From Candidatus Woesearchaeota archaeon (GTDB lineage Archaea; Nanobdellota; Nanobdellia; UBA10117; JABICX01), in NCBI GenBank assembly GCA_018692915.1, contig JABHLG010000009.1, positions 9,332 to 73,331 on the forward strand: DNA of 64,000 bases, written 5' to 3'. The position numbers and the translations under genes were made by a program. This document shows positions 29,211 through 52,509 of the stretch, one piece after another. Each line of letters opens with the position of its first letter. Position 1 is the first letter of the stretch. Under the pieces are notes generated by a model. It saw only the letters and a program-made list of their open reading frames with translations, did not search any database and was not told where the DNA came from.

Positions 29211-30116
29211 TTATTTTCTTAATATTTTATGTATATTTTCTTCAGAACCAATGTAAACTCTATAATCTTTAATACAATTACTAAATTTACCAATCATATC
29301 ATAAAATCCATTTACAGAAAGGTAATTATCTCTTTTCTCTAAAAAGTTATCATCTCCACTTAACTCTAGGAAACTTAGATTAAGTGGAAATTTAGCTGCA
29401 TTAATTAAGTTTATTTTTGTATCAGATTCAGGGATAATTTCACCAGACGCACCTTTATTATATTGTAAAGATAAAGATCTGATACGTGATTTATTATTTC
29501 TAATAATTATTGGTTCGTCTATTGTAATAATCTTATTTTCTAATCCACCAGTAATTCTTGATAGAGTATGTATTTTTTTATCAGGGTGACGCTGACTAAA
29601 TAAAGTTACATTATCAGCAGTAGGTTTTGCAACTAAATAAGACCCTGAAAGAACATTAATATCCTCATCATATGTATTAATTAAGTGATCTAAAATAGTG
29701 CTTTTACCTGTTCCTTTTTGTGAACTACTAAGAAGATATATTTGATTTTTATATTCAAACGCAACCCCATGAATAAATAATAATTCTCTTGCTAAAGATA
29801 ACATAATTGAGCGCATAAATACGGAATTTATATTACGATCTCCTAATTTTGACTCTAACTCATCTGAATTAATATTAATATTTGCACAACCATATGCCGT
29901 ATTTAATTCTATAGTATTTGCAGAAGAAGTAGTATCTATATTTAATTTTCCGATAAAATCATTAGCATTATAATGCGGTAATTCTCTAACATATATTCCG
30001 CGCATTAATTCACCAATATTAATTTCTAAATACCTTGCAATACTTCGATTATCTTTAACTGTATATTGAAATTTTCTTCTTTCTGGGCCAATTTCATATG
30101 CTCGTTTTGATTCCAT
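29211..30116 (-). CDS. HprK-like P-loop protein (HPr kinase/phosphorylase C-terminal domain-like fold), function unknown
   Basis: IHGVAFEYKNQIYLLSSSQKGTGKSTILDHL ... VLSGSYLV fits the HprK-type pattern hHG...g.gvLl.G.SG.GKS. Its start ATG shares 1 nt with the upstream gene's stop (TAATG). Confidence 0.6.
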   Translation of the reverse strand: MESKRAYEIGPERRKFQYTVKDNRSIARYLEINIGELMRGIYVRELPHYNANDFIGKLNIDTTSSANTIELNTAYGCANININSDELESKLGDRNINSVFMRSIMLSLARELLFIHGVAFEYKNQIYLLSSSQKGTGKSTILDHLINTYDEDINVLSGSYLVAKPTADNVTLFSQRHPDKKIHTLSRITGGLENKIITIDEPIIIRNNKSRIRSLSLQYNKGASGEIIPESDTKINLINAAKFPLNLSFLELSGDDNFLEKRDNYLSVNGFYDMIGKFSNCIKDYRVYIGSEENIHKILRK

Positions 30117-31903
30117 TATTCTATCTTAACAAAACCTCCTTCACTTTTTATGAAATTATCAATATTAAATTCCTTAAGTGGTAATTTTATGATGTGTCCT
30201 GCGTTAAAGTATTTTTGAAAAGAATAACTAACATTATTATTATCAAACAAAGATTTTGAGTATCTACTGAAATTTAATCTACGAACCTTAGAATCTTTAT
30301 CATAAAAATAATTAGCAATAGTTTCTTTCTGACAATCTCGCAATCCTAATCTAATATAATCTACATCAAGATTATCCATATAATCTCTAGTTGCTTGAAG
30401 AATTATTTCTATATCTTTTAAATTCACATTACCTTCTAAAAGAATATCAAAAGCTTCTTTTAAACCAACTAAAGATAAAGAATACAAACTATCATCTAAA
30501 TGAATATATTTAATTTTCTTAAACAAATATCTGCTCTGAATTGAATTGACTAATTCATAAGAATATTTCAAAACTTCGACAGATTCTTTAATAATTTTAA
30601 ACAACTCTTCTTTAAACAGTTGCAAATTCTTAGTTCTAGCAGCAATACGAGGAGCATTAATTGCAATATTTTGTATGTCACCTACGCGAACTGTTCGCAT
30701 CCAATATTTCCAATTAGCATCTAAACGGGAGTTTTTTAAATAAACTACATTAGATGTCTGCCATTTTGGAATTAAATTCGCAATATAAGATTTCGGTATA
30801 AACAATAAATCATTTTTAGGTTCAGTCCATAGTTTATATACTAAAGATATATTATTTGTTTTTATTTTCTTAAATATATTAAGAATTATATCTGTATTAA
30901 TACCAACATATTTTTCTAAATTCATTAGATTTGGTGGTAAGAAATTTACTTCTAATTCTTTTTGAATAAAACGAGGAGTGCCCATATCTAACCCTAAAAA
31001 TATTTCAACACCAATTGCATCTAAATTTTTAATAAACTTTTCAAGTTCAGATACAATCTTACGCTCATCTAAAATAGATGTATATTTAGAAATAAAATAA
31101 TTAAAAGAATCTAATGCTTGTTCTTTAATACCTAAATTTGCTAGTTTTTTAACCATATTTGTAACTTCCATTAAGTAATCTGGAAGATTAGAAACATTAT
31201 TGAACAAAGCTATTGCATTTAAGTCATGTGAAAAATTAGATACTTTTGGTTTTCCTAAATTCTCAATAAAAATATCTCCATTAATGTGCATATCTAAACC
31301 ATATGGATAACGCAATTTTAAATAATTAAAAAAAGTTTGTATCTTAGCACGAGATTTTTCTATGTTTATTAATGCGCTATTAATTGAATTCACTCTATTT
31401 TGTATTGCAATTTCAAATATTGCTCTAAATTCAATAAGAGATGTTCTTTCACGTATTTGATTTTGAATAGAATTTAATCCAATTTCTATTGTATTTTTAG
31501 GAATGCCTCCATCTAAGTAAGGTTTAGCAAATTTGATTTTATCAAAACGTTCTAGCTTACCATGGTCAGTAATTATATGAAAATCAGATAGTTCACTATC
31601 TTCGTGCTCTATTTTATCACCCTTAAGTATCTTAGATATATTAGATGGATTTATATTAATATAAAAATCTTGGATATAGAACATTCGCTTTAAGCGATTC
31701 TCATGTTCTTGTTTTGAACGAACAAAGCCAGTACGTTCAAGTTGCTCTAAATATTTGTGTGCTGTTGAAAATTTTAAATTAAGTTGCTTAGATATATCTG
31801 TGATTGATTTTGCTCCAGTTTCAGTTAGCAATGCAAGTATTCTTAACTTTACTTCATTGTCAAGCACTTTCAGTTGCTCAATTACTTTCGTGTTTTGAAC
31901 CAT
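30116..31903 (-). CDS. wHTH (ArsR-like) domain fused to a large (about 500 aa) uncharacterised domain
   Basis: The N-terminus LKVLDNEVKLRILALLTETGAKSITDISKQLNLKFSTAHKYLEQLERTGFVRSK is a winged-helix HTH. The remainder has no recognisable motif. It is translationally coupled to the HprK-like gene. Confidence 0.6.
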   Translation of the reverse strand: MVQNTKVIEQLKVLDNEVKLRILALLTETGAKSITDISKQLNLKFSTAHKYLEQLERTGFVRSKQEHENRLKRMFYIQDFYININPSNISKILKGDKIEHEDSELSDFHIITDHGKLERFDKIKFAKPYLDGGIPKNTIEIGLNSIQNQIRERTSLIEFRAIFEIAIQNRVNSINSALINIEKSRAKIQTFFNYLKLRYPYGLDMHINGDIFIENLGKPKVSNFSHDLNAIALFNNVSNLPDYLMEVTNMVKKLANLGIKEQALDSFNYFISKYTSILDERKIVSELEKFIKNLDAIGVEIFLGLDMGTPRFIQKELEVNFLPPNLMNLEKYVGINTDIILNIFKKIKTNNISLVYKLWTEPKNDLLFIPKSYIANLIPKWQTSNVVYLKNSRLDANWKYWMRTVRVGDIQNIAINAPRIAARTKNLQLFKEELFKIIKESVEVLKYSYELVNSIQSRYLFKKIKYIHLDDSLYSLSLVGLKEAFDILLEGNVNLKDIEIILQATRDYMDNLDVDYIRLGLRDCQKETIANYFYDKDSKVRRLNFSRYSKSLFDNNNVSYSFQKYFNAGHIIKLPLKEFNIDNFIKSEGGFVKIE

Positions 31904-34573: not shown

Positions 34574-35047
34574 CTACCAGGGGCTCTGCCAGTTCTGTTT
34601 AGGTTGCTGTTGCTGTTGTTGAGGTTGCTGAGTTTGGAATGACCCAAACGCATTAGCATCTTGCTGACCATAACCTGCTTGTTGCTGTTGAGGTTGCTGA
34701 GGTTGTTGCTGAGGTTTAGCTGGACTTAATTTACTTTCCATTTGTGTAATTTTCTGCTTTAGAACTTCCATCTCAGAAAGCAAAGAGTCAATCTTGCTAG
34801 TTAAAATCTCAATTTTATTTGACAGTTGCATTTGAGATGAAGCAGATGTTCCTGAAGAACTTGGAAGTGCTGAAGGACTTGGTAATTGACCTACACCACC
34901 TATATCTGGCATTTCGCCACCTGCGGGACCTAAAGCGCCACTTGGACCGCCAATTCCACTAGTAGGTAATTTCATAAAATCTTCTTCTTCATCAGGTCTT
35001 CCTCTTAACTTATCAAAAACGCCCATAAAACACAAAAAGATTATCAC
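34574..35047 (-). CDS. low-complexity protein with N-terminal MGVFDKL, a G/P/S-rich linker, a coiled coil and a poly-Q tail
   Basis: ORF track entry. The likely true start is at MGVFDKLRGRP (35026). The PspA/ESCRT-III-like N-terminal resemblance is weak. Confidence 0.45.
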   Translation of the reverse strand: MIIFLCFMGVFDKLRGRPDEEEDFMKLPTSGIGGPSGALGPAGGEMPDIGGVGQLPSPSALPSSSGTSASSQMQLSNKIEILTSKIDSLLSEMEVLKQKITQMESKLSPAKPQQQPQQPQQQQAGYGQQDANAFGSFQTQQPQQQQQQPKQNWQSPW

Positions 35048-35115: not shown

Positions 35116-36600
35116 ATGAGTAAGTATGAAATAATTATGGGGTCATATCAAGGTAGTGTTGAAAAATACTATTTCTTAGCTCTCGAACTGCTCGGAGAGT
35201 TTGGTTTTAAGTCAATCAAGACAAATGATACATTTACATCAAGTATAACTTCTTCATTCTGGGGCTCAATTGAACAACGGAGAACCTTACAACAAGAAAA
35301 AGCATCACAATTCCTTGCGACAATTGGCAACATGATTAAAACTATGTTTCAAATAATTAGGTCTTTACGAATTATGGACGAAAAGATGAAATATTATACT
35401 GAAGCTAAAAAAGGGCCTGACCGAAAATCTGCGGAAATTGCATTAAAAGGAATTTGGATTGATATGGTTGAAGGAGGAGGTAAGAATCCTAGTTCTATTT
35501 ATGGATTAGCAACACAAGTTGGATTTACTACACTTCCAGATTTATTCTTTGATATCTGTCCAAGAGATTCTACTGATTTAAACAAAAAAATGAATGAATT
35601 AAACAAAAGTGGAATAAACAAAAAAATAACTGAAGTTCTTAGAAGAAAACTTTTCCAATATATGGAATGGAGAGATAAAACTGATGAAGAAATTAAAACA
35701 AGTAGAAGATTCCACCTTGCTTATCTTAGACAGCACTTTAACACAATTCGAATGTATTTAAGTTGGGTCAAACCTTATTTGAAAAATGTAAATAGATTAA
35801 AACAACATGGCTCAAGACAAGAACATTTACTAGAAATGGCAGATACTGCAATATCTGATATTGAATTATTTTCTTATCCTGAAAATTTTAAAAAATATAA
35901 AAAATATGTTCCAATAATAACAACTAATTTTGAATACACAACAGTTCCTGAATTATCTTATCAACAAGAATACCAGCGAGGACCAATTCACGTTGGACGA
36001 ACGCGCATGGTAATCGAAGGAAAAGCAATGTTAATTGAAGAAGTACGTGAGAAGTTTAGGCAAGATATGTTAAACGATCTTAACTTACTAAAAGACATGT
36101 TCTCTGCAATGCAAGCACTTGGAGATGATTTAAAGAATTATTTAGAAGAAGCTGAAGAAGAAGACCCTGCAGGTAAACTAGGTAAAAAATTAAAATCTGG
36201 AAAAGCTAAAGCACCTACTGGAATTATTGGTTTATTTGGCCCATTCAAAGATATTGGAAAAGGATTTACAACATTATTTGGTGGATTTACGCGAGGGAAA
36301 AAGAAAGAGTTCAAAAAAACAGTTATAACATATGATTTACCAGAAGACATTGAAAAAATGTGGAAAATAAGACAAGCAACTGTAAAAGAAAAACGAAGTA
36401 GTAGAATGAAATTCAAAATGCGTGAAGATTTTGACGATGATAAATCATTTAAGAAATATTTAGACCTATCTAAAAAACGTAACACAAAAGCAGAAGAAGA
36501 TGAGCTTGCAGCAGTTAAAAAAACTGTAGAAAAAAAAGAAGACATTGTCTGGAAGATTTATGACACATACAAGAAAAGTCTTGGCGTTGTTCGATGGTAA
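35116..36600 (+). CDS. hypothetical protein (494 aa), charged C-terminal third
   Basis: Long clean ORF with no recognised domain. It is divergent from the Q-rich gene. Confidence 0.6.
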   Translation: MSKYEIIMGSYQGSVEKYYFLALELLGEFGFKSIKTNDTFTSSITSSFWGSIEQRRTLQQEKASQFLATIGNMIKTMFQIIRSLRIMDEKMKYYTEAKKGPDRKSAEIALKGIWIDMVEGGGKNPSSIYGLATQVGFTTLPDLFFDICPRDSTDLNKKMNELNKSGINKKITEVLRRKLFQYMEWRDKTDEEIKTSRRFHLAYLRQHFNTIRMYLSWVKPYLKNVNRLKQHGSRQEHLLEMADTAISDIELFSYPENFKKYKKYVPIITTNFEYTTVPELSYQQEYQRGPIHVGRTRMVIEGKAMLIEEVREKFRQDMLNDLNLLKDMFSAMQALGDDLKNYLEEAEEEDPAGKLGKKLKSGKAKAPTGIIGLFGPFKDIGKGFTTLFGGFTRGKKKEFKKTVITYDLPEDIEKMWKIRQATVKEKRSSRMKFKMREDFDDDKSFKKYLDLSKKRNTKAEEDELAAVKKTVEKKEDIVWKIYDTYKKSLGVVRW

Positions 36601-36781: not shown

Positions 36782-37306
36782 ATGACTAAACCAAGTAAGA
36801 ATGCTAAGAAACTTCAGAAGAAGCTAAACGGTAACAACACATCGCAAACTTCAAAAAAGCTTGCGGAGCTGACTACGTCAGAAACAAAAGACACTGAGGA
36901 CACTGAAAAAAAGAACCAAGAGAAAAAAACACAACAATTTATTAATGAAAATCATTTTGAGTTATTTTCTAAATTCACGCAACCAGAACATATAGATATA
37001 ACTAAACTCCTAACTGAATCACCAAACAAATCAGAAGAAACAGAAACATTAGAGCAAACTACTGCACAATTTATTACCCAAGAAGAAAGCGAAAACATTG
37101 TTCAAAACCAATATACAGGTGGTGAAGATTATACTAAATACAATAAACATGAGCATATAGATATAACAAAATATCCTATAAAAGATAAGCAATTAAAACA
37201 ATACAAAACAGAGCTACTTTCATTTAATCCAGTAACTACTGATAGTGAATCTAATTCTCCTGAATCAGATTATAACACTAAAAAACCCAAAGAACAACAC
37301 TACTAA
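36782..37306 (+). CDS. disordered polar protein with two EHIDITK repeats (174 aa)
   Basis: ORF track entry. Low complexity (T/E/K/Q/N). Confidence 0.4.
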   Translation: MTKPSKNAKKLQKKLNGNNTSQTSKKLAELTTSETKDTEDTEKKNQEKKTQQFINENHFELFSKFTQPEHIDITKLLTESPNKSEETETLEQTTAQFITQEESENIVQNQYTGGEDYTKYNKHEHIDITKYPIKDKQLKQYKTELLSFNPVTTDSESNSPESDYNTKKPKEQHY

Positions 37307-37400
37307 TTCCCAAACTTATTTATATATTAAAGAATATATATTCTATTATGATGTTAAAATGTGAAACATTTGAACGGCCCGCTAAAATGGAGGTTTTAGC

Positions 37401-39311
37401 GTGAAATTAAGTCCTACTTATTGGGAAGCAGGAAGAGCAGGTAATGATCAACATATTACTTCTATAGGCAACATCGGAATTGGAACTCATGCAGGAAAAG
37501 ACCAACTCCAAGAATTAAAAGCTAAGATTTTCAAAGGTGCTGGTGCTGTTGAACTTGGTTTTATGGGCCGTGGAAAGGGTGTAAAAGGTCAAGGAAACAC
37601 TACTCCTGGAATGCATGGTAAAGAAGAACGAGAAGCAATGCGCGACCTTGCAAAAGTAAATAAAGTTCGGTTATCAACACATGCGTCAGTTGGTGCAGGT
37701 TCATGGTCAGGTTTTCACGAAAACAAATTTGATGAAAATGCACGAGAACAAAATATTTTCGAAGGTAAACGAGCAATTGAATTTGCAGCAGATGTAGCAG
37801 AGGGCGGACCAATTGTTATTCATACAGGTGAATTTCCAAGAGGTATTACAGAAGTTCCTAATGGTGATGATAACTTTCGAACATTAATAAAAGAAAGTGG
37901 TCAGCAAACTCATTATCTTATGGATAAAAAAACAGGACAGTTAATCACAGCAGTTAGAGAAGACCAAGTAAATTTCGTGCCTGAATATGATGTAACAACA
38001 AATGAAAAAGACCAGTGGGGTAAAGAAATAAAACATATTAAATGGAAAGATAAACCAGGTGGAGAATTTAATATTATTAAACATAATTGGGCACATTATA
38101 AAGAAGAAGCTAAGAAAAATGATAGAGAAGATTATAAAAAATTCCAAAACCCTAACGATAAAAATTATGACCCTTCAAAATCAGCAGATCCATCTATACT
38201 TTTCTATTATGAAAATCTTGAAGCTAAACGATTACAAGCTCAAGGACAAGCAGATGAGTATGAATTAATGTATCGACGGCACGCAGATGATAGAGAAAAA
38301 ATCAAAAAAGCAGTAGATTATTGGGAAAAAAAATGGAAAGAAATACCTAAAGAAGATAGATGGAAACATATGGAAGCAATACCTATCGAAGGTAAAGGAT
38401 TAGTAGAACCACATGTTCGTAACAGACTTGAGCACCTTAAAAGAATGCTTGAAGACACTGAAAAGCAAATGAGTTATGGAAAAGAAGTCGCAGCTAGTTC
38501 ACGTGCTAATGAGCAAGAAATTAAAGACCAGCAAAAGAGAGTTACGTCAATTCCAGATTATGGTTTAAAAAAGACTGCAGATTCTATCGCCACAATGGCT
38601 ATTTATGCTGCTGAAGAACAGCAAAAGAAAAATCTAAAACGTGATATGTTTATAGCTCCTGAAAATATTTTTCCAGAAATGGGTTATGGTTCCCATCCTG
38701 ACGAACTTAAAAAAATTGTTCAAGACTCACGTAAAGAAATGGTTAAAAAACTAACAGATCCATTTATTGAAAGAAATGGTGAAAAAATCAAAAATCCAGA
38801 TTTCCATGCAAACCTTAGTGAAAGTAAAGCAAAAGAAATGGCTGCGCGACACATTAAAGCAACTTTTGATATTGGGCATGCAAATACTTGGCAAAAATAC
38901 TTTAAAGGCAAGCCAAAAGAATTCAAAAAATGGCTTATTGATCAAGTATCTGAACTAAACAAGGAAGGAGTTCTTGGTCACGTGCACGTTACAGATAATT
39001 TTGGTTATTATGATGAGCATTTATCTCCAGGGCAAGGTAATGTTCCTGTTGAGGAGTTTGTTAAGCAATTAAAAAAATCTGGATATAAAGGTCAAATTAC
39101 AGTTGAAACTGCAGAGCAGGACTACAAAGCAATGACTGAAATGTGGAGAACTGTAAACAGTCCCGTTTATAAAATCGGTGGCGGATGGCAAGACTGGGCA
39201 GGTATTGAGCAAGGATACTTTGGTAAAACTCGCTCACCTAATTTCTTATTTGGTCCAATTGCTCCAGACCCAAAAACATGGACTCTTTGGTCAGAAGTCC
39301 CGATGGAATAA
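37401..39311 (+). CDS. xylose-isomerase-like TIM-barrel (sugar phosphate isomerase/epimerase / endonuclease IV superfamily) protein with about 330-aa charged insertion
   Basis: N-terminal barrel half GAVELGFMGRGKG ... RLSTHAS ... IVIHTGE. C-terminal half FDIGHANTW ... GHVHVTDNFGYYDEHLSPGQGNVPVEEFVKQLKKSGYKGQITVE. GTG start with ggagg SD at -12. Confidence 0.6.
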   Translation: MKLSPTYWEAGRAGNDQHITSIGNIGIGTHAGKDQLQELKAKIFKGAGAVELGFMGRGKGVKGQGNTTPGMHGKEEREAMRDLAKVNKVRLSTHASVGAGSWSGFHENKFDENAREQNIFEGKRAIEFAADVAEGGPIVIHTGEFPRGITEVPNGDDNFRTLIKESGQQTHYLMDKKTGQLITAVREDQVNFVPEYDVTTNEKDQWGKEIKHIKWKDKPGGEFNIIKHNWAHYKEEAKKNDREDYKKFQNPNDKNYDPSKSADPSILFYYENLEAKRLQAQGQADEYELMYRRHADDREKIKKAVDYWEKKWKEIPKEDRWKHMEAIPIEGKGLVEPHVRNRLEHLKRMLEDTEKQMSYGKEVAASSRANEQEIKDQQKRVTSIPDYGLKKTADSIATMAIYAAEEQQKKNLKRDMFIAPENIFPEMGYGSHPDELKKIVQDSRKEMVKKLTDPFIERNGEKIKNPDFHANLSESKAKEMAARHIKATFDIGHANTWQKYFKGKPKEFKKWLIDQVSELNKEGVLGHVHVTDNFGYYDEHLSPGQGNVPVEEFVKQLKKSGYKGQITVETAEQDYKAMTEMWRTVNSPVYKIGGGWQDWAGIEQGYFGKTRSPNFLFGPIAPDPKTWTLWSEVPME

Positions 39312-39385: not shown

Positions 39386-40219
39386 TTGAATACTATGAAA
39401 TTTAAAGTTAGACATAATAAGGGCCATTTAAATTATAATAAAAAATATCCAAAAAACGAAATAATAATTGCTAGGAAACTAGCAAAGCGACTTTACAAAG
39501 AAATGGGTGAGTTTATTGTTGCTATGTCTTTATTTGGCTCTTCAGCACGTGGCGGGCATAAAAAACATGACATTGATGTATTAGTTATAATTGATGATGT
39601 TCATGTTAAATTAACGCGCGAGCTAATTGAAACATATCGCATAATTCTTGCAAAAGCTGTTTCAAATATAGACCCAAAGCGACTTCATATTCAAACTATG
39701 GCTTGGACATCTTTTTGGGAGTATGTTAGAGTTGGAGACCCTATTGCAATAAACATATTACGAGATAGTATTTCATTAATTGATATTGGATTCTTTGACC
39801 CACTTCAAACACTTTTATTCCAAGGCAGAATAAGACCTAGTGAAGAAAGCATTTGGACATATTTTTCACTAGCACCTACATCATTACACAGTTCAAAAAT
39901 GCACATTAATGCAGCACTTTTAGACCTTTATTGGGCAGCAATTGATGCAGCACATGCTGCTCTTATGAGTATTGGTGAAATTCCACCTAGCCCCGCACAT
40001 GTTTCTGACATGATACAAAAAAAATTAGTTGTGCCTGGATTAGTTCCTGCACGCTGTGCAACTGTAATGAAACACATGTATATTATATCTAAAAAAATCA
40101 CTCACGGTGAATATTCTCATTTAGAAGGTGACGATTATGATAAATACCAGCGCCATGTTCAGAAATTTATAAAAGACATGGAGAAAGTCATTAAACATAA
40201 AATTAATAAGAAATTATAA
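39386..40219 (+). CDS. Pol-beta-type nucleotidyltransferase domain fused to a helical HEPN-like domain (277 aa)
   Basis: LFGSSARGGHKKHDIDVLVIIDD is the GS-x(n)-DxD NTase motif. It is paralogous to the core of the 41299 gene (shared LRD.I.L.D.G.F.P...L..G.I.PS.E.I). Confidence 0.65.
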   Translation: MNTMKFKVRHNKGHLNYNKKYPKNEIIIARKLAKRLYKEMGEFIVAMSLFGSSARGGHKKHDIDVLVIIDDVHVKLTRELIETYRIILAKAVSNIDPKRLHIQTMAWTSFWEYVRVGDPIAINILRDSISLIDIGFFDPLQTLLFQGRIRPSEESIWTYFSLAPTSLHSSKMHINAALLDLYWAAIDAAHAALMSIGEIPPSPAHVSDMIQKKLVVPGLVPARCATVMKHMYIISKKITHGEYSHLEGDDYDKYQRHVQKFIKDMEKVIKHKINKKL

Positions 40220-41298: not shown

Positions 41299-43206
41299 AT
41301 GCCAGAACCAACATACCTACAAAAAGAGCAACCAAAATATCAAAATCAAGATAATTCTTCAAATGTTAAAATTGATGATATAGAACTTTTAAAGAAAAAA
41401 GCAGCTGCACAAGCTGCAAAAAAAGAGCAAGAAAAACGAGAATTTGCAGAAAAAATCAAAGTTTTAATGAGTGACACTGCAAAAAAAGCTACTCCTTTCA
41501 AAAAAGAAATTCTTGGTAAACACAAACAACGACTAATTGGTATTATTATTATGCCTCCAAAAGCAGACAAAAAACTTGAAACAAAGGCAGGCAAGCTTAA
41601 TGATAAATTAGATATTTTATGTTTATTAGAATTTAAAGATATTTCAGATATCAAAAAGAAAATTGAAAAGAAACAAGAAATTGAAAAGAAAATCAAAGAC
41701 CTTGCAAAGAAAAAATTACCTGGTCATGATGTTAATGTTGTATTATTAGATGAAATATGGGATATGTGTCTAAAAGGAAAGCACGACATCCTTAATATTC
41801 TATCAATAGGTATGCCGCTTTACGATAGTGGTTGGATAGGCGCACTTAGAATGACTGAAATCCACAAAATGAAAGTGCTTCAGAAATTTGAAAAATATGT
41901 TATATGTTATGCTCTTGCAGGTTCTATGGTGCGTGGAGATGCTACAGAAACATCTGACGTAGATGGATTTATTGTTATTGATGATACAGATGTAACTCGA
42001 ATGACTTCTGCTGAATTAAAAAATAGACTTATGGGAATTATTTGGGGATATGCTGGAGAAGCTGCTTTAGCTGCAGGTGTTAAAAACAAGTTAGAAGTTC
42101 AAGTTTATGTTCTAAGCGACATGTGGGACTCAATAAAAAACGCTAACCCGGTCATAGTTACATTATTAAGAGATGGAATTCCATTATATGATAGAGGAAT
42201 GTTCACTCCGTGGAAAATGCTTCTTAAGAAAGGTAAAATTAAACCAAGCCCTGAAGCAATTACAAATTATATGAAATCAGGTGGTCAGATACTTGATAGA
42301 ATCAAAGCAAAATTTAAAGAAATGTCTATTGAGGACTTTTTCTGGGCAACATGCACACCGTCTCAAGGTGCACTTATGGTTATGGGTGTAGCACCACCTG
42401 CACACAAAGAAGTTGCTGCAGCACTTAGAGAACACTTTGTAAAAAACGGGTTACTTGAAGACAAATATGTAAAAATGTGGGAACGAATCTTCAAAGTGCG
42501 AAAGGATTTTGAGCACGGACGTAGAAAAGACATTGACGCAAAGGAAATTGCTTCACTTGTAAATGATGTTCAATTATATTTAAAGAGAATTGATAAATTA
42601 TTCATAGAAGTTGAAAAAAGAGTTATTTGTGATGAAATGAAGGTCCTTTACAACAAAACTGTTGAGGATTGCTTAGCTGCAGTTTCAATGGTTGGAAAGA
42701 AAGCTACAAAGAAAGATGTTTTTAAGAAATTCAAAGATGAGCTTGTTGATAAACAACTTGCATCAGAGCGATATAATGACCTTGTTAAAAGAATTGAAGA
42801 ACTAAGCAAATCATGTAAAGCAAGTAGAGAAGAAATTGCTTCACTTAGTTTTGAGCAAGATAAGCAAGCAAGAGATGTTTTTAATTTAATTCGAGCTGAG
42901 CATGGCCAGAAAATTGAGAAATTCAAAGTCTCAGCACAATATAATAAAGGAAAAGACACAGCAGCTATATGGTTATTCACAAAAGATGCTTACATAATTA
43001 GAGATGTATCTGATCCAAACACTGCAATTATGAGTTATAAAATTTCATCTAATGGTTCTTTAACTGATAAAAAAGATGCTAAATTATCTGATGTTGAAAA
43101 GAAACTTCAGACTTTTTCAGGCACACCAACAACAATGACAAAACAAACAATTGATTGTCTTAAAGATATTCTCTCAGATGATGTTAAGATTGTCATTGGA
43201 GCCTAG
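41299..43206 (+). CDS. large nucleotidyltransferase + HEPN-like protein with K/E-rich N-terminus and C-terminal coiled-coil extension (635 aa)
   Basis: ALAGSMVRGDATETSDVDGFIVIDDTD NTase motif. The central region is homologous to the 39386 protein. Confidence 0.65.
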   Translation: MPEPTYLQKEQPKYQNQDNSSNVKIDDIELLKKKAAAQAAKKEQEKREFAEKIKVLMSDTAKKATPFKKEILGKHKQRLIGIIIMPPKADKKLETKAGKLNDKLDILCLLEFKDISDIKKKIEKKQEIEKKIKDLAKKKLPGHDVNVVLLDEIWDMCLKGKHDILNILSIGMPLYDSGWIGALRMTEIHKMKVLQKFEKYVICYALAGSMVRGDATETSDVDGFIVIDDTDVTRMTSAELKNRLMGIIWGYAGEAALAAGVKNKLEVQVYVLSDMWDSIKNANPVIVTLLRDGIPLYDRGMFTPWKMLLKKGKIKPSPEAITNYMKSGGQILDRIKAKFKEMSIEDFFWATCTPSQGALMVMGVAPPAHKEVAAALREHFVKNGLLEDKYVKMWERIFKVRKDFEHGRRKDIDAKEIASLVNDVQLYLKRIDKLFIEVEKRVICDEMKVLYNKTVEDCLAAVSMVGKKATKKDVFKKFKDELVDKQLASERYNDLVKRIEELSKSCKASREEIASLSFEQDKQARDVFNLIRAEHGQKIEKFKVSAQYNKGKDTAAIWLFTKDAYIIRDVSDPNTAIMSYKISSNGSLTDKKDAKLSDVEKKLQTFSGTPTTMTKQTIDCLKDILSDDVKIVIGA

Positions 43207-52370: not shown

Positions 52371-52509
52371 GCTGGGGTACCGAAGTGGTCAAACGGGCAG
52401 GACTTAAGATGAGCCCTTTCTTGTAAGAAAGGTTTCACAGTCCCAAAGAACAAATTATAAGACATCCTGTGGCTTAGTGCCTACGCAGGTTCAAACCCTG
52501 TCCCCAGCA
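52371..52509 (+). tRNA. tRNA-Leu (anticodon UAA) with about 55-nt intron at the canonical 37/38 position (approximately 52410-52464)
   Basis: Acceptor gctgggg/ccccagc, D-arm ccga-agtggtcaa-acgg, anticodon arm cagga-ctTAAga-[intron]-tcctg, a long variable arm (ggcttagtgcctac), T-arm gcagg-ttcaaac-cctgt, discriminator A. No encoded CCA. Confidence 0.75.

Follow-up and report, generated by a model that had tools for sequence, protein, structure and literature searches.

A TIM-barrel protein family of DPANN archaea with a predicted folded insert and an endonuclease IV-like set of ligand residues

Introduction

Nfo, the endonuclease IV (EndoIV) of Escherichia coli, has nine catalytic residues, H69, H109, E145, D179, H182, H216, D229, H231 and E261 (Kiyonari 2009, PMC2770678). 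The same work lists MJ1311 of Methanocaldococcus jannaschii as a predicted EndoIV homolog. Here we describe a relative of MJ1311 which is encoded in a stretch of 64,000 nucleotides from Candidatus Woesearchaeota archaeon (assembly GCA_018692915.1, contig JABHLG010000009.1, positions 9,332 to 73,331), called the window below. The gene occupies positions 37401-39311 of the forward strand. Its TIM barrel is divided by a large, predicted folded insert and carries putative equivalents of all nine Nfo residues. An initial annotation, made from the DNA letters alone, had proposed a barrel of the AP-endonuclease-2/sugar-isomerase type (AP, apurinic/apyrimidinic) with two halves separated by a long charged segment.

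Mononuclear epimerases of this superfamily use only an E/D/H/E subset of the ligands; the histidines at the ends of β3 and β4 are outside of the epimerase site. The structure paper on MJ1311 reportedly noted that the nine EndoIV residues are conserved and that a DNA-binding groove is absent. In addition, the loop after β4 is said to cap the metal site of the other subunit. The family described here did not come up in literature searches for MJ1311/3WQO, for Woesearchaeota with endonuclease IV and for DPANN with either AP endonuclease or a TIM barrel of the xylose-isomerase-like type. In the databases its sequences are labelled either 'hypothetical' or 'sugar phosphate isomerase/epimerase'.

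Results

Barrel architecture

The 636-residue product is 100% identical to the deposited 'hypothetical protein HN777_04570 [Candidatus Woesearchaeota archaeon]'. In two stretches it matched Pfam PF01261 (AP_endonuc_2, xylose isomerase-like TIM barrel), scoring 68.1 bits where the cutoff is 31.1 (E=1.2e-18). The motifs quoted earlier from both halves are all present, and 33-55% of the residues of the central region are charged, as had been noted. A structural model was built with AlphaFold2 (AF2) from an alignment of 118 family sequences. It has a mean pLDDT (predicted local distance difference test) of 89.9 and a pTM (predicted template modelling score) of 0.87 and is poor only at residues 1-16 and 590-612. 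Eight strands follow each other in barrel order (residues 25-28, 49-53, 90-94, 136-141, 416-421, 487-490, 525-530 and 566-568). In a Foldseek comparison with the PDB, alignments of ~570-600 columns bridged the insert. The target-normalised template modelling (TM) score to MJ1311 (3wqo_B) was 0.77; UlaE and D-psicose 3-epimerases followed with 0.64-0.69.

Whether the two halves belong to one barrel was also examined independently of the AF2 model, using relatives which lack the insert. An 85-residue fragment of MJ1311 yielded just one further fragment of 117 residues, and the latter was used for an exhaustive search of representative sequences. The best 150 representatives were full-length proteins of 245-320 residues, shorter fragments and a single outlier of 5,557 residues. 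In this outlier (P0247) the MJ1311-like segment is located at residues 3246-3327, which would be a giant multidomain context for such a barrel. An alignment of 64 full-length insert-less proteins served as the MJ1311-like profile. When the columns of query residues 150-383 were removed from the family profile, hhalign aligned the two end to end (probability 99.9%, E=6.5e-32, 246 columns). The untrimmed family profile gave E=1e-20, and the N-terminal 150 residues alone gave E=1.7e-12. By profile comparison and predicted structure, both halves thus belong to a single-chain (β/α)8 barrel in the MJ1311-like branch of the AP_endonuc_2/xylose-isomerase-like superfamily. Of the options left by the initial annotation, the single barrel was borne out by model and Foldseek alignment, and the N-terminal segment is barrel-like by itself; the notion of two separate proteins was not sustained. 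The parts of the gene are as follows.

37467-37841, forward strand: N-terminal barrel half, residues 23-147, β1-β4 (hhalign and AF2 strands).
37566-37604, forward strand: Gly/Lys-rich β2-α2 loop, residues 56-68, GRGKGVKGQGNTT; opposite a 12-residue gap in the MJ1311-like template; K59 in 118/118 sequences.
37842-38186, forward strand: insert part 1, residues 148-262, β-rich subdomain with short helices and the YLVDxxTG motif; AF2 strands 170-175, 180-186, 191-194 and 225-228.
38187-38549, forward strand: insert part 2, residues 263-383, helices 264-314 and 342-380 with a variable tip (AF2).
38550-39152, forward strand: C-terminal barrel half, residues 384-584, α4, β5-β8 and α8 (hhalign and AF2).
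39153-39308, forward strand: C-terminal tail, residues 585-636, family-specific and conserved, modelled with low confidence; terminal Glu in 117/118 sequences.

Ligand residues

The E. coli Nfo sequence used here was identical to 1QTW chain A (285/285 residues). The MJ1311-like profile matched it with a probability of 98.7% (E=3.5e-16, 213 columns), and all nine Nfo ligands were in conserved columns. Several solved endonucleases IV were matched at E=1e-23 to 1e-18. Mapped via this profile, the Nfo ligands correspond to H94, H141, E421, D490, H493, H529, D538, H540 and E569 of the query, each of which is conserved in 117-118 of the 118 family sequences. The AF2 model places them at strand ends as in Nfo, i.e. 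H94 at β3, H141 at β4, E421 at β5, D490 and H493 at β6, H529 at β7 and E569 at β8; D538 and H540 are in the β7-α7 loop. E421, D490, H529 and E569, the E/D/H/E set of the mononuclear enzymes, are invariant, but as a subset of the nine they do not discriminate against epimerases. E51, K59, D532 and N533 are further conserved residues on the active-site face. The comparison with the EndoIV ligands which the initial annotation had suggested thus located all nine equivalents. Its proposal that the C-terminal half alone carries the metal site was not supported, since two of the invariant ligand equivalents, H94 and H141, belong to the N-terminal half. The motifs are listed below.

37674-37688, forward strand: STHAS; H94 at the end of β3 corresponds to Nfo H69; H94 in 118/118 sequences.
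37812-37832, forward strand: IVIHTGE; H141 at the end of β4 corresponds to Nfo H109, E144 is nearly invariant (alignment pairing).
38655-38666, forward strand: APEN; E421 at the end of β5 corresponds to Nfo E145 (alignment pairing).
38865-38885, forward strand: FDIGHAN; D490 and H493 correspond to Nfo D179 and H182 (alignment pairing).
38976-39020, forward strand: GHVHVTDNFGYYDEH; H529, D538 and H540 correspond to Nfo H216, D229 and H231 (alignment pairing).
39096-39107, forward strand: ITVE; E569 at the end of β8 corresponds to Nfo E261 (alignment pairing).

Because all nine EndoIV ligand residues are conserved, a metal-dependent phosphoesterase appears more likely than a sugar epimerase. Of the type proposed initially, the superfamily was confirmed by PF01261; the sugar-isomerase part of that label is probably wrong.

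The insert

The hhalign alignment breaks right after HTGEFPR, at β4, and resumes at the helix before APEN, at β5. The insert was therefore assigned to residues ~148-383. According to this alignment, it comprises about 236 residues in the β4-α4 loop, on the catalytic face of the barrel. An earlier figure of 330 residues had swallowed α4, β5 (APEN, with E421), α5 and β6 (FDIGHAN). The insert is present in all family members and varies from 155 to 273 residues (median 225, 118 sequences). In the same alignment its conservation index is 0.23-0.41 vs 0.55-0.82 in the barrel. Moderate conservation inside the insert is limited to the first ~50 residues with the YLVDxxTG motif. G179 of this motif is invariant in one family alignment and in an insert-only alignment, and conserved to at least 90% in another family alignment.

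The AF2 model of the insert has a pLDDT mostly above 90 and consists of a β-rich part with short helices, followed by two very long helices. The longer one has 51 residues and would span ~75 Å, and the tip between them has 0-49 residues across the family. Judged from their layout, helices 264-314 and 342-380 would pack as an antiparallel hairpin. A folded domain is thus predicted, in line with the new domain considered initially and at odds with a disordered spacer. An insert-only profile had no significant match in Pfam or the PDB; coiled-coil noise and an insignificant L24/KOW-like hint were returned. Although rich in charged residues, the insert is close to neutral; the protein as a whole is acidic, with a family median net charge of -14. 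Further additions which set the family apart from MJ1311-like proteins are an N-terminal extension (residues 1-22) and a variable segment at ~453-478. A comparable insert was absent from the nearest solved or insert-less relatives in the superfamily, as judged by Foldseek, fragment search and profile matches. Therefore, the separation of the halves is unusual, as claimed, within the superfamily, where the nearest relatives are insert-less proteins of 245-320 residues. The claim does not extend to the TIM-barrel fold in general: large domain insertions in β-α loops are well known in other TIM-barrel families.

Distribution and coding sequence

A search with the 636-residue protein returned more than 700 homologs at E<=1e-3. 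The best 120 of these have 477-699 residues (560-700 in nearly all cases), and with few exceptions they cover 96-100% of the query, with identities down to 36%; those with organism names are from Woesearchaeota or Nanoarchaeota. In a scan of one genome per species, relatives were present in 467 GTDB species. The 80 loci returned from these species were all from metagenome-assembled genomes (MAGs) of Woese-/Pace-/Nanoarchaeota type (DPANN). By computation, and judged from these loci, the split-barrel family is restricted to the DPANN lineage, and its gene is a core gene of Woese-, Pace- and Nanoarchaeota. Several MAGs with the gene (L017, L021, L026, L028, L044, L048 and others) are titled 'uncultured Methanosarcinales archaeon', probably taxonomic mislabels.

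The open reading frame (ORF) at 37401-39311 (+) is complete, with 636 codons and a TAA stop, and GTG is the earliest possible start past the upstream stop. The next in-frame methionine is M55. Y7, D12, G26 and E51, conserved in the family alignments, are upstream of it, so the GTG start is required. The start proposed initially, with its ggagg Shine-Dalgarno sequence, was thus correct:

37389-37393, forward strand: Shine-Dalgarno-like GGAGG, read from the sequence, 7 nt before GTG.

Gene neighbourhood

The gene is part of a cluster with conserved order, i.e. a partner gene of ~480-520 residues, a small charged gene, the barrel gene and then, often, a nucleotidyltransferase (NTase) gene of ~270 residues. 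In the window these neighbours are:

35116-36600, forward strand: partner gene, 494 residues, no Pfam/NCBIfam match, upstream of the barrel gene.
36782-37306, forward strand: small charged low-complexity gene, 174 residues, conserved in position, barely in sequence.
39386-40219, forward strand: KNTase/MNT-like NTase, 277 residues, downstream; its start is listed as TTG but is more probably the ATG at 39395, which gives MKF... as in the homologs.

Synteny was counted on 80 species loci of the 467, with those loci as denominators which had enough room. In 63 of 72 loci the partner preceded the barrel gene on the same strand; in 49 of 71 the NTase followed it. In other loci the genes of the cluster abut or overlap, unlike the 94-bp gap which precedes the barrel gene in the window. 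Inside this gap, after the small gene, a TATA-box-like (archaeal) sequence, TTTATATA, is found at 37319-37326, ~75 nt upstream of GTG; chance is possible at the 32% GC of the window. A bacterial-type promoter/terminator scan of the window was set aside as not meaningful for an archaeon.

Homologs of the partner, more than 870 in number, are confined to Woese-/Nanoarchaeota. The partner contains the strongly conserved motif GIWIDxVEGGxKNPxSxYGLAxQVGFxTLPDLFF. The AF2 model of the partner (pLDDT 83.5) combines a β-sheet with helices of 50-60 residues and had no significant fold match in the PDB or BFVD. The NTase is 48-61% identical across loci. By analogy with the repair system of African swine fever virus it was considered as a Pol beta/Pol X-like gap-filling polymerase; this was rejected because its profile matches only minimal nucleotidyltransferases of the MNT/KNTase/HalB type, and these weakly. 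A second NTP_transf_2 (KNTase/MNT-like) paralog of 635 residues is encoded at 41299-43206 (+), and the pair with the 277-residue gene is syntenic in a compared locus (L003).

The surrounding genes are housekeeping genes, i.e. for ribosomal proteins, TFIIB and tRNA-modification enzymes. A reading as a defence island was rejected: PADLOC had no signature for the barrel protein or the partner, and the gene is located among housekeeping genes. A single tRNA was detected in the window, spanning 139 nt at 52371-52509 (+) with an Rfam score of 44.4 bits; the span implies an intron and thereby an archaeal genome. ARAGORN in default mode reported no tRNA in the whole window. On the reverse strand, the product of a 157-residue ORF at 34574-35047 is rich in Gly, Pro and Ser in a segment close to the N-terminus; another, short segment resembles a coiled coil, and the C-terminal tail is Q/P-rich (QQPQQPQQQQ). 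Its PspA/DivIVA-like matches are weak, and a 158-residue gene is found at the equivalent position in L003. A 594-residue protein (30116-31903, reverse strand) consists of an N-terminal winged-helix (MarR/IclR-like) domain and a weak NRDD (anaerobic ribonucleotide reductase) match below the Pfam cutoff; its 591-residue counterpart is syntenic in L003.

The insert-less MJ1311-like relatives had no recurrent gene context in the lineages sampled. In two MAGs of Freyarchaeota (Asgard; L088 4405-5211, L089 4019-4825) the MJ1311-like gene comes directly after genes for an AAA_18 (Fap7-like) kinase and an RNA-binding protein of PF01877. An RNase-Z-like β-lactamase and a THUMP methyltransferase are encoded next to it. 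Such an RNA-processing-type neighbourhood was not seen in other sampled lineages and is at most a weak hint.

Discussion

The whole package is best explained by an EndoIV-type multinuclear-metal phosphoesterase in a split barrel with a folded arm. We assign to this a probability of roughly 55%, the function being deduced from homology and predicted structure. The substrate would be phosphorylated, e.g. damaged or 3'-blocked nucleic-acid ends. The Gly/Lys loop on the catalytic face, where K59 is invariant, would fit such a substrate. The charged arm would serve as a lid, as a dimerisation element or for partner binding. Such roles are preferred to that of a basic nucleic-acid clamp because the arm is near neutral in charge. 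If the reported account of MJ1311 is right, the insert elaborates exactly the loop which caps the active site across the dimer.

Several observations weigh against this assignment. A direct link to Nfo is absent: NCBIfam contained no nfo model among the matches, no EndoIV chain was found at E<=1 with the family profile, and hhalign of the family with Nfo as a single sequence was not significant, whether the insert was kept or removed (E=0.12-0.17). Direct family-Nfo alignments were reliable for the C-terminal six ligands only, with zero confidence in the N-terminal register. As far as alignments tell, the link from the family to Nfo is transitive via the MJ1311-like clade, and the best E value of this clade is 7e-33 with ketose 3-epimerases and 1e-23 with EndoIV, so that overall it is a little nearer to the former. 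The acidic protein and its non-basic arm are unlike what is expected of a DNA-clamping arm. DNA-repair genes linked to the conserved cluster were not found. Finally, PF1383, an EndoIV-like protein from P. furiosus, has no detectable AP endonuclease activity (PMC2770678). It lacks, as reported there, a residue equivalent to Nfo E261; hence its ligand set is incomplete.

The closeness of the MJ1311-like profile to tagatose 3-epimerases (E=7e-33) at the same time argues for a ketose 3-epimerase or isomerase acting on a sugar or sugar-phosphate, with a single Mn/Co site (E421, D490, H529, E569) and the insert as substrate lid or oligomerisation domain. So do the database name and the Foldseek ranking, in which sugar epimerases (UlaE, psicose and tagatose epimerases) come just behind MJ1311. 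The only NCBIfam matches, fructoselysine 3-epimerase and hydroxypyruvate isomerase, are also of this type, but they are weak, C-terminal and far below their cutoffs; the best one, fructoselysine 3-epimerase, scored 28.1 bits vs 305 and covered the C-terminal 46 residues only. An epimerase would not account for the five extra ligand equivalents H94, H141, H493, D538 and H540, which are invariant or nearly so. Moreover, the conserved neighbourhood in the loci compared is devoid of sugar-metabolism genes, and the gene is kept in 467 species in spite of reduced genomes. We consider such an enzyme unlikely.

Possibly the protein is instead mainly a structural or scaffolding subunit of a lineage-specific complex, in which the insert hairpin pairs with the long helices of the partner and the metal site is secondary or regulatory. 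Helices of about 50-60 residues are predicted in both the barrel protein and the 494-residue partner, and their genes are in tight synteny, the reading frames abutting or overlapping. The arm carries many charges without being basic, and the partner has no enzyme-like fold match. The strict conservation of nine metal ligands and of E51, K59, D532 and N533, however, indicates selection for catalysis. We consider a mainly structural role quite improbable. Hardly credible is an artefact, be it an erroneous fusion of two genes in sequencing or assembly, or a conventional short barrel to which an unrelated or disordered extension is attached. Apart from the unusual length and the charged middle region nothing speaks for it. 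Independent assemblies yield more than 700 proteins with the same uninterrupted architecture, and it occurs in 467 species; therefore the insert is neither an assembly artefact nor a recent fusion. In addition, the N-terminal half is homologous to the first half of the barrel and the insert is modelled with high confidence.

The EndoIV-type phosphoesterase can be extended to the whole cluster. The barrel protein, the 494-residue partner, the small charged protein and the NTase could form a lineage-specific end-healing or repair machine which has not been described before, a speculative proposal with a small chance of being right. In such a machine, the helical hairpins of insert and partner would hold the complex together. 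Blocked or damaged nucleic-acid ends, or another phosphorylated substrate, would first be processed by the trinuclear-metal barrel, which would clean such ends; the NTase would take over from there and use the product.

The genomes of Woese-, Pace- and Nanoarchaeota are very small, and many of their genes, a large share, are unannotated. A protein of 636 residues which is kept in at least 467 species together with a conserved cluster is probably important. Because the ligand set points to an EndoIV-type multinuclear site, the label 'sugar phosphate isomerase/epimerase' likely misleads metabolic reconstructions. If the protein is the AP endonuclease or 3'-end-cleaning enzyme of the lineage, it would fill in DNA/RNA repair in these archaea and represent a new decoration of the barrel, a long arm on the catalytic face. 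It also offers a way into the uncharacterised MJ1311-like clade and towards a partner without recognisable fold.

Comparison with known systems

MJ1311 (PDB 3WQO, deposited as 'D-tagatose 3-epimerase-like protein') is the closest relative, with E=4e-11 by single sequence in addition to the structural match. MJ1311-like proteins, from Methanococci, Asgard archaea and others, have the same nine ligand positions and near-identical FDIGHAN, HVHxxDNxGxxDEH and E motifs. In contrast to the family, they are single-domain proteins without the ~236-residue insert, the 12-residue Gly/Lys loop, the N-terminal extension and the C-terminal tail. By profile E values, their clade sits between ketose 3-epimerases and endonuclease IV. 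Nfo (1QTW), a trinuclear zinc AP endonuclease, has the same superfamily fold, and its nine zinc ligands have equivalents at the same strand ends in the family. Yet Nfo lacks the large insert, its direct sequence similarity to the family is not significant and the family is acidic. The ketose 3-epimerases (D-tagatose, D-psicose, UlaE) share the barrel and the E/D/H/E core of the metal site. They are mononuclear, have ~290 residues and no insert, whereas the family carries five extra ligand-type residues.

In pyruvate kinase and in glycoside hydrolase family 13 (GH13), a whole domain, domain B, is inserted in a loop of the TIM barrel on the catalytic face. The principle of insertion is the same as in the split-barrel family, but these are unrelated superfamilies and the inserted folds are different. 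The superfamily and the fold described here are themselves already known. New in this family are the large, predicted folded β4-α4 insert and the other specific additions, a likely mis-annotation, and the conserved cluster, whose partner protein lacks a fold match.

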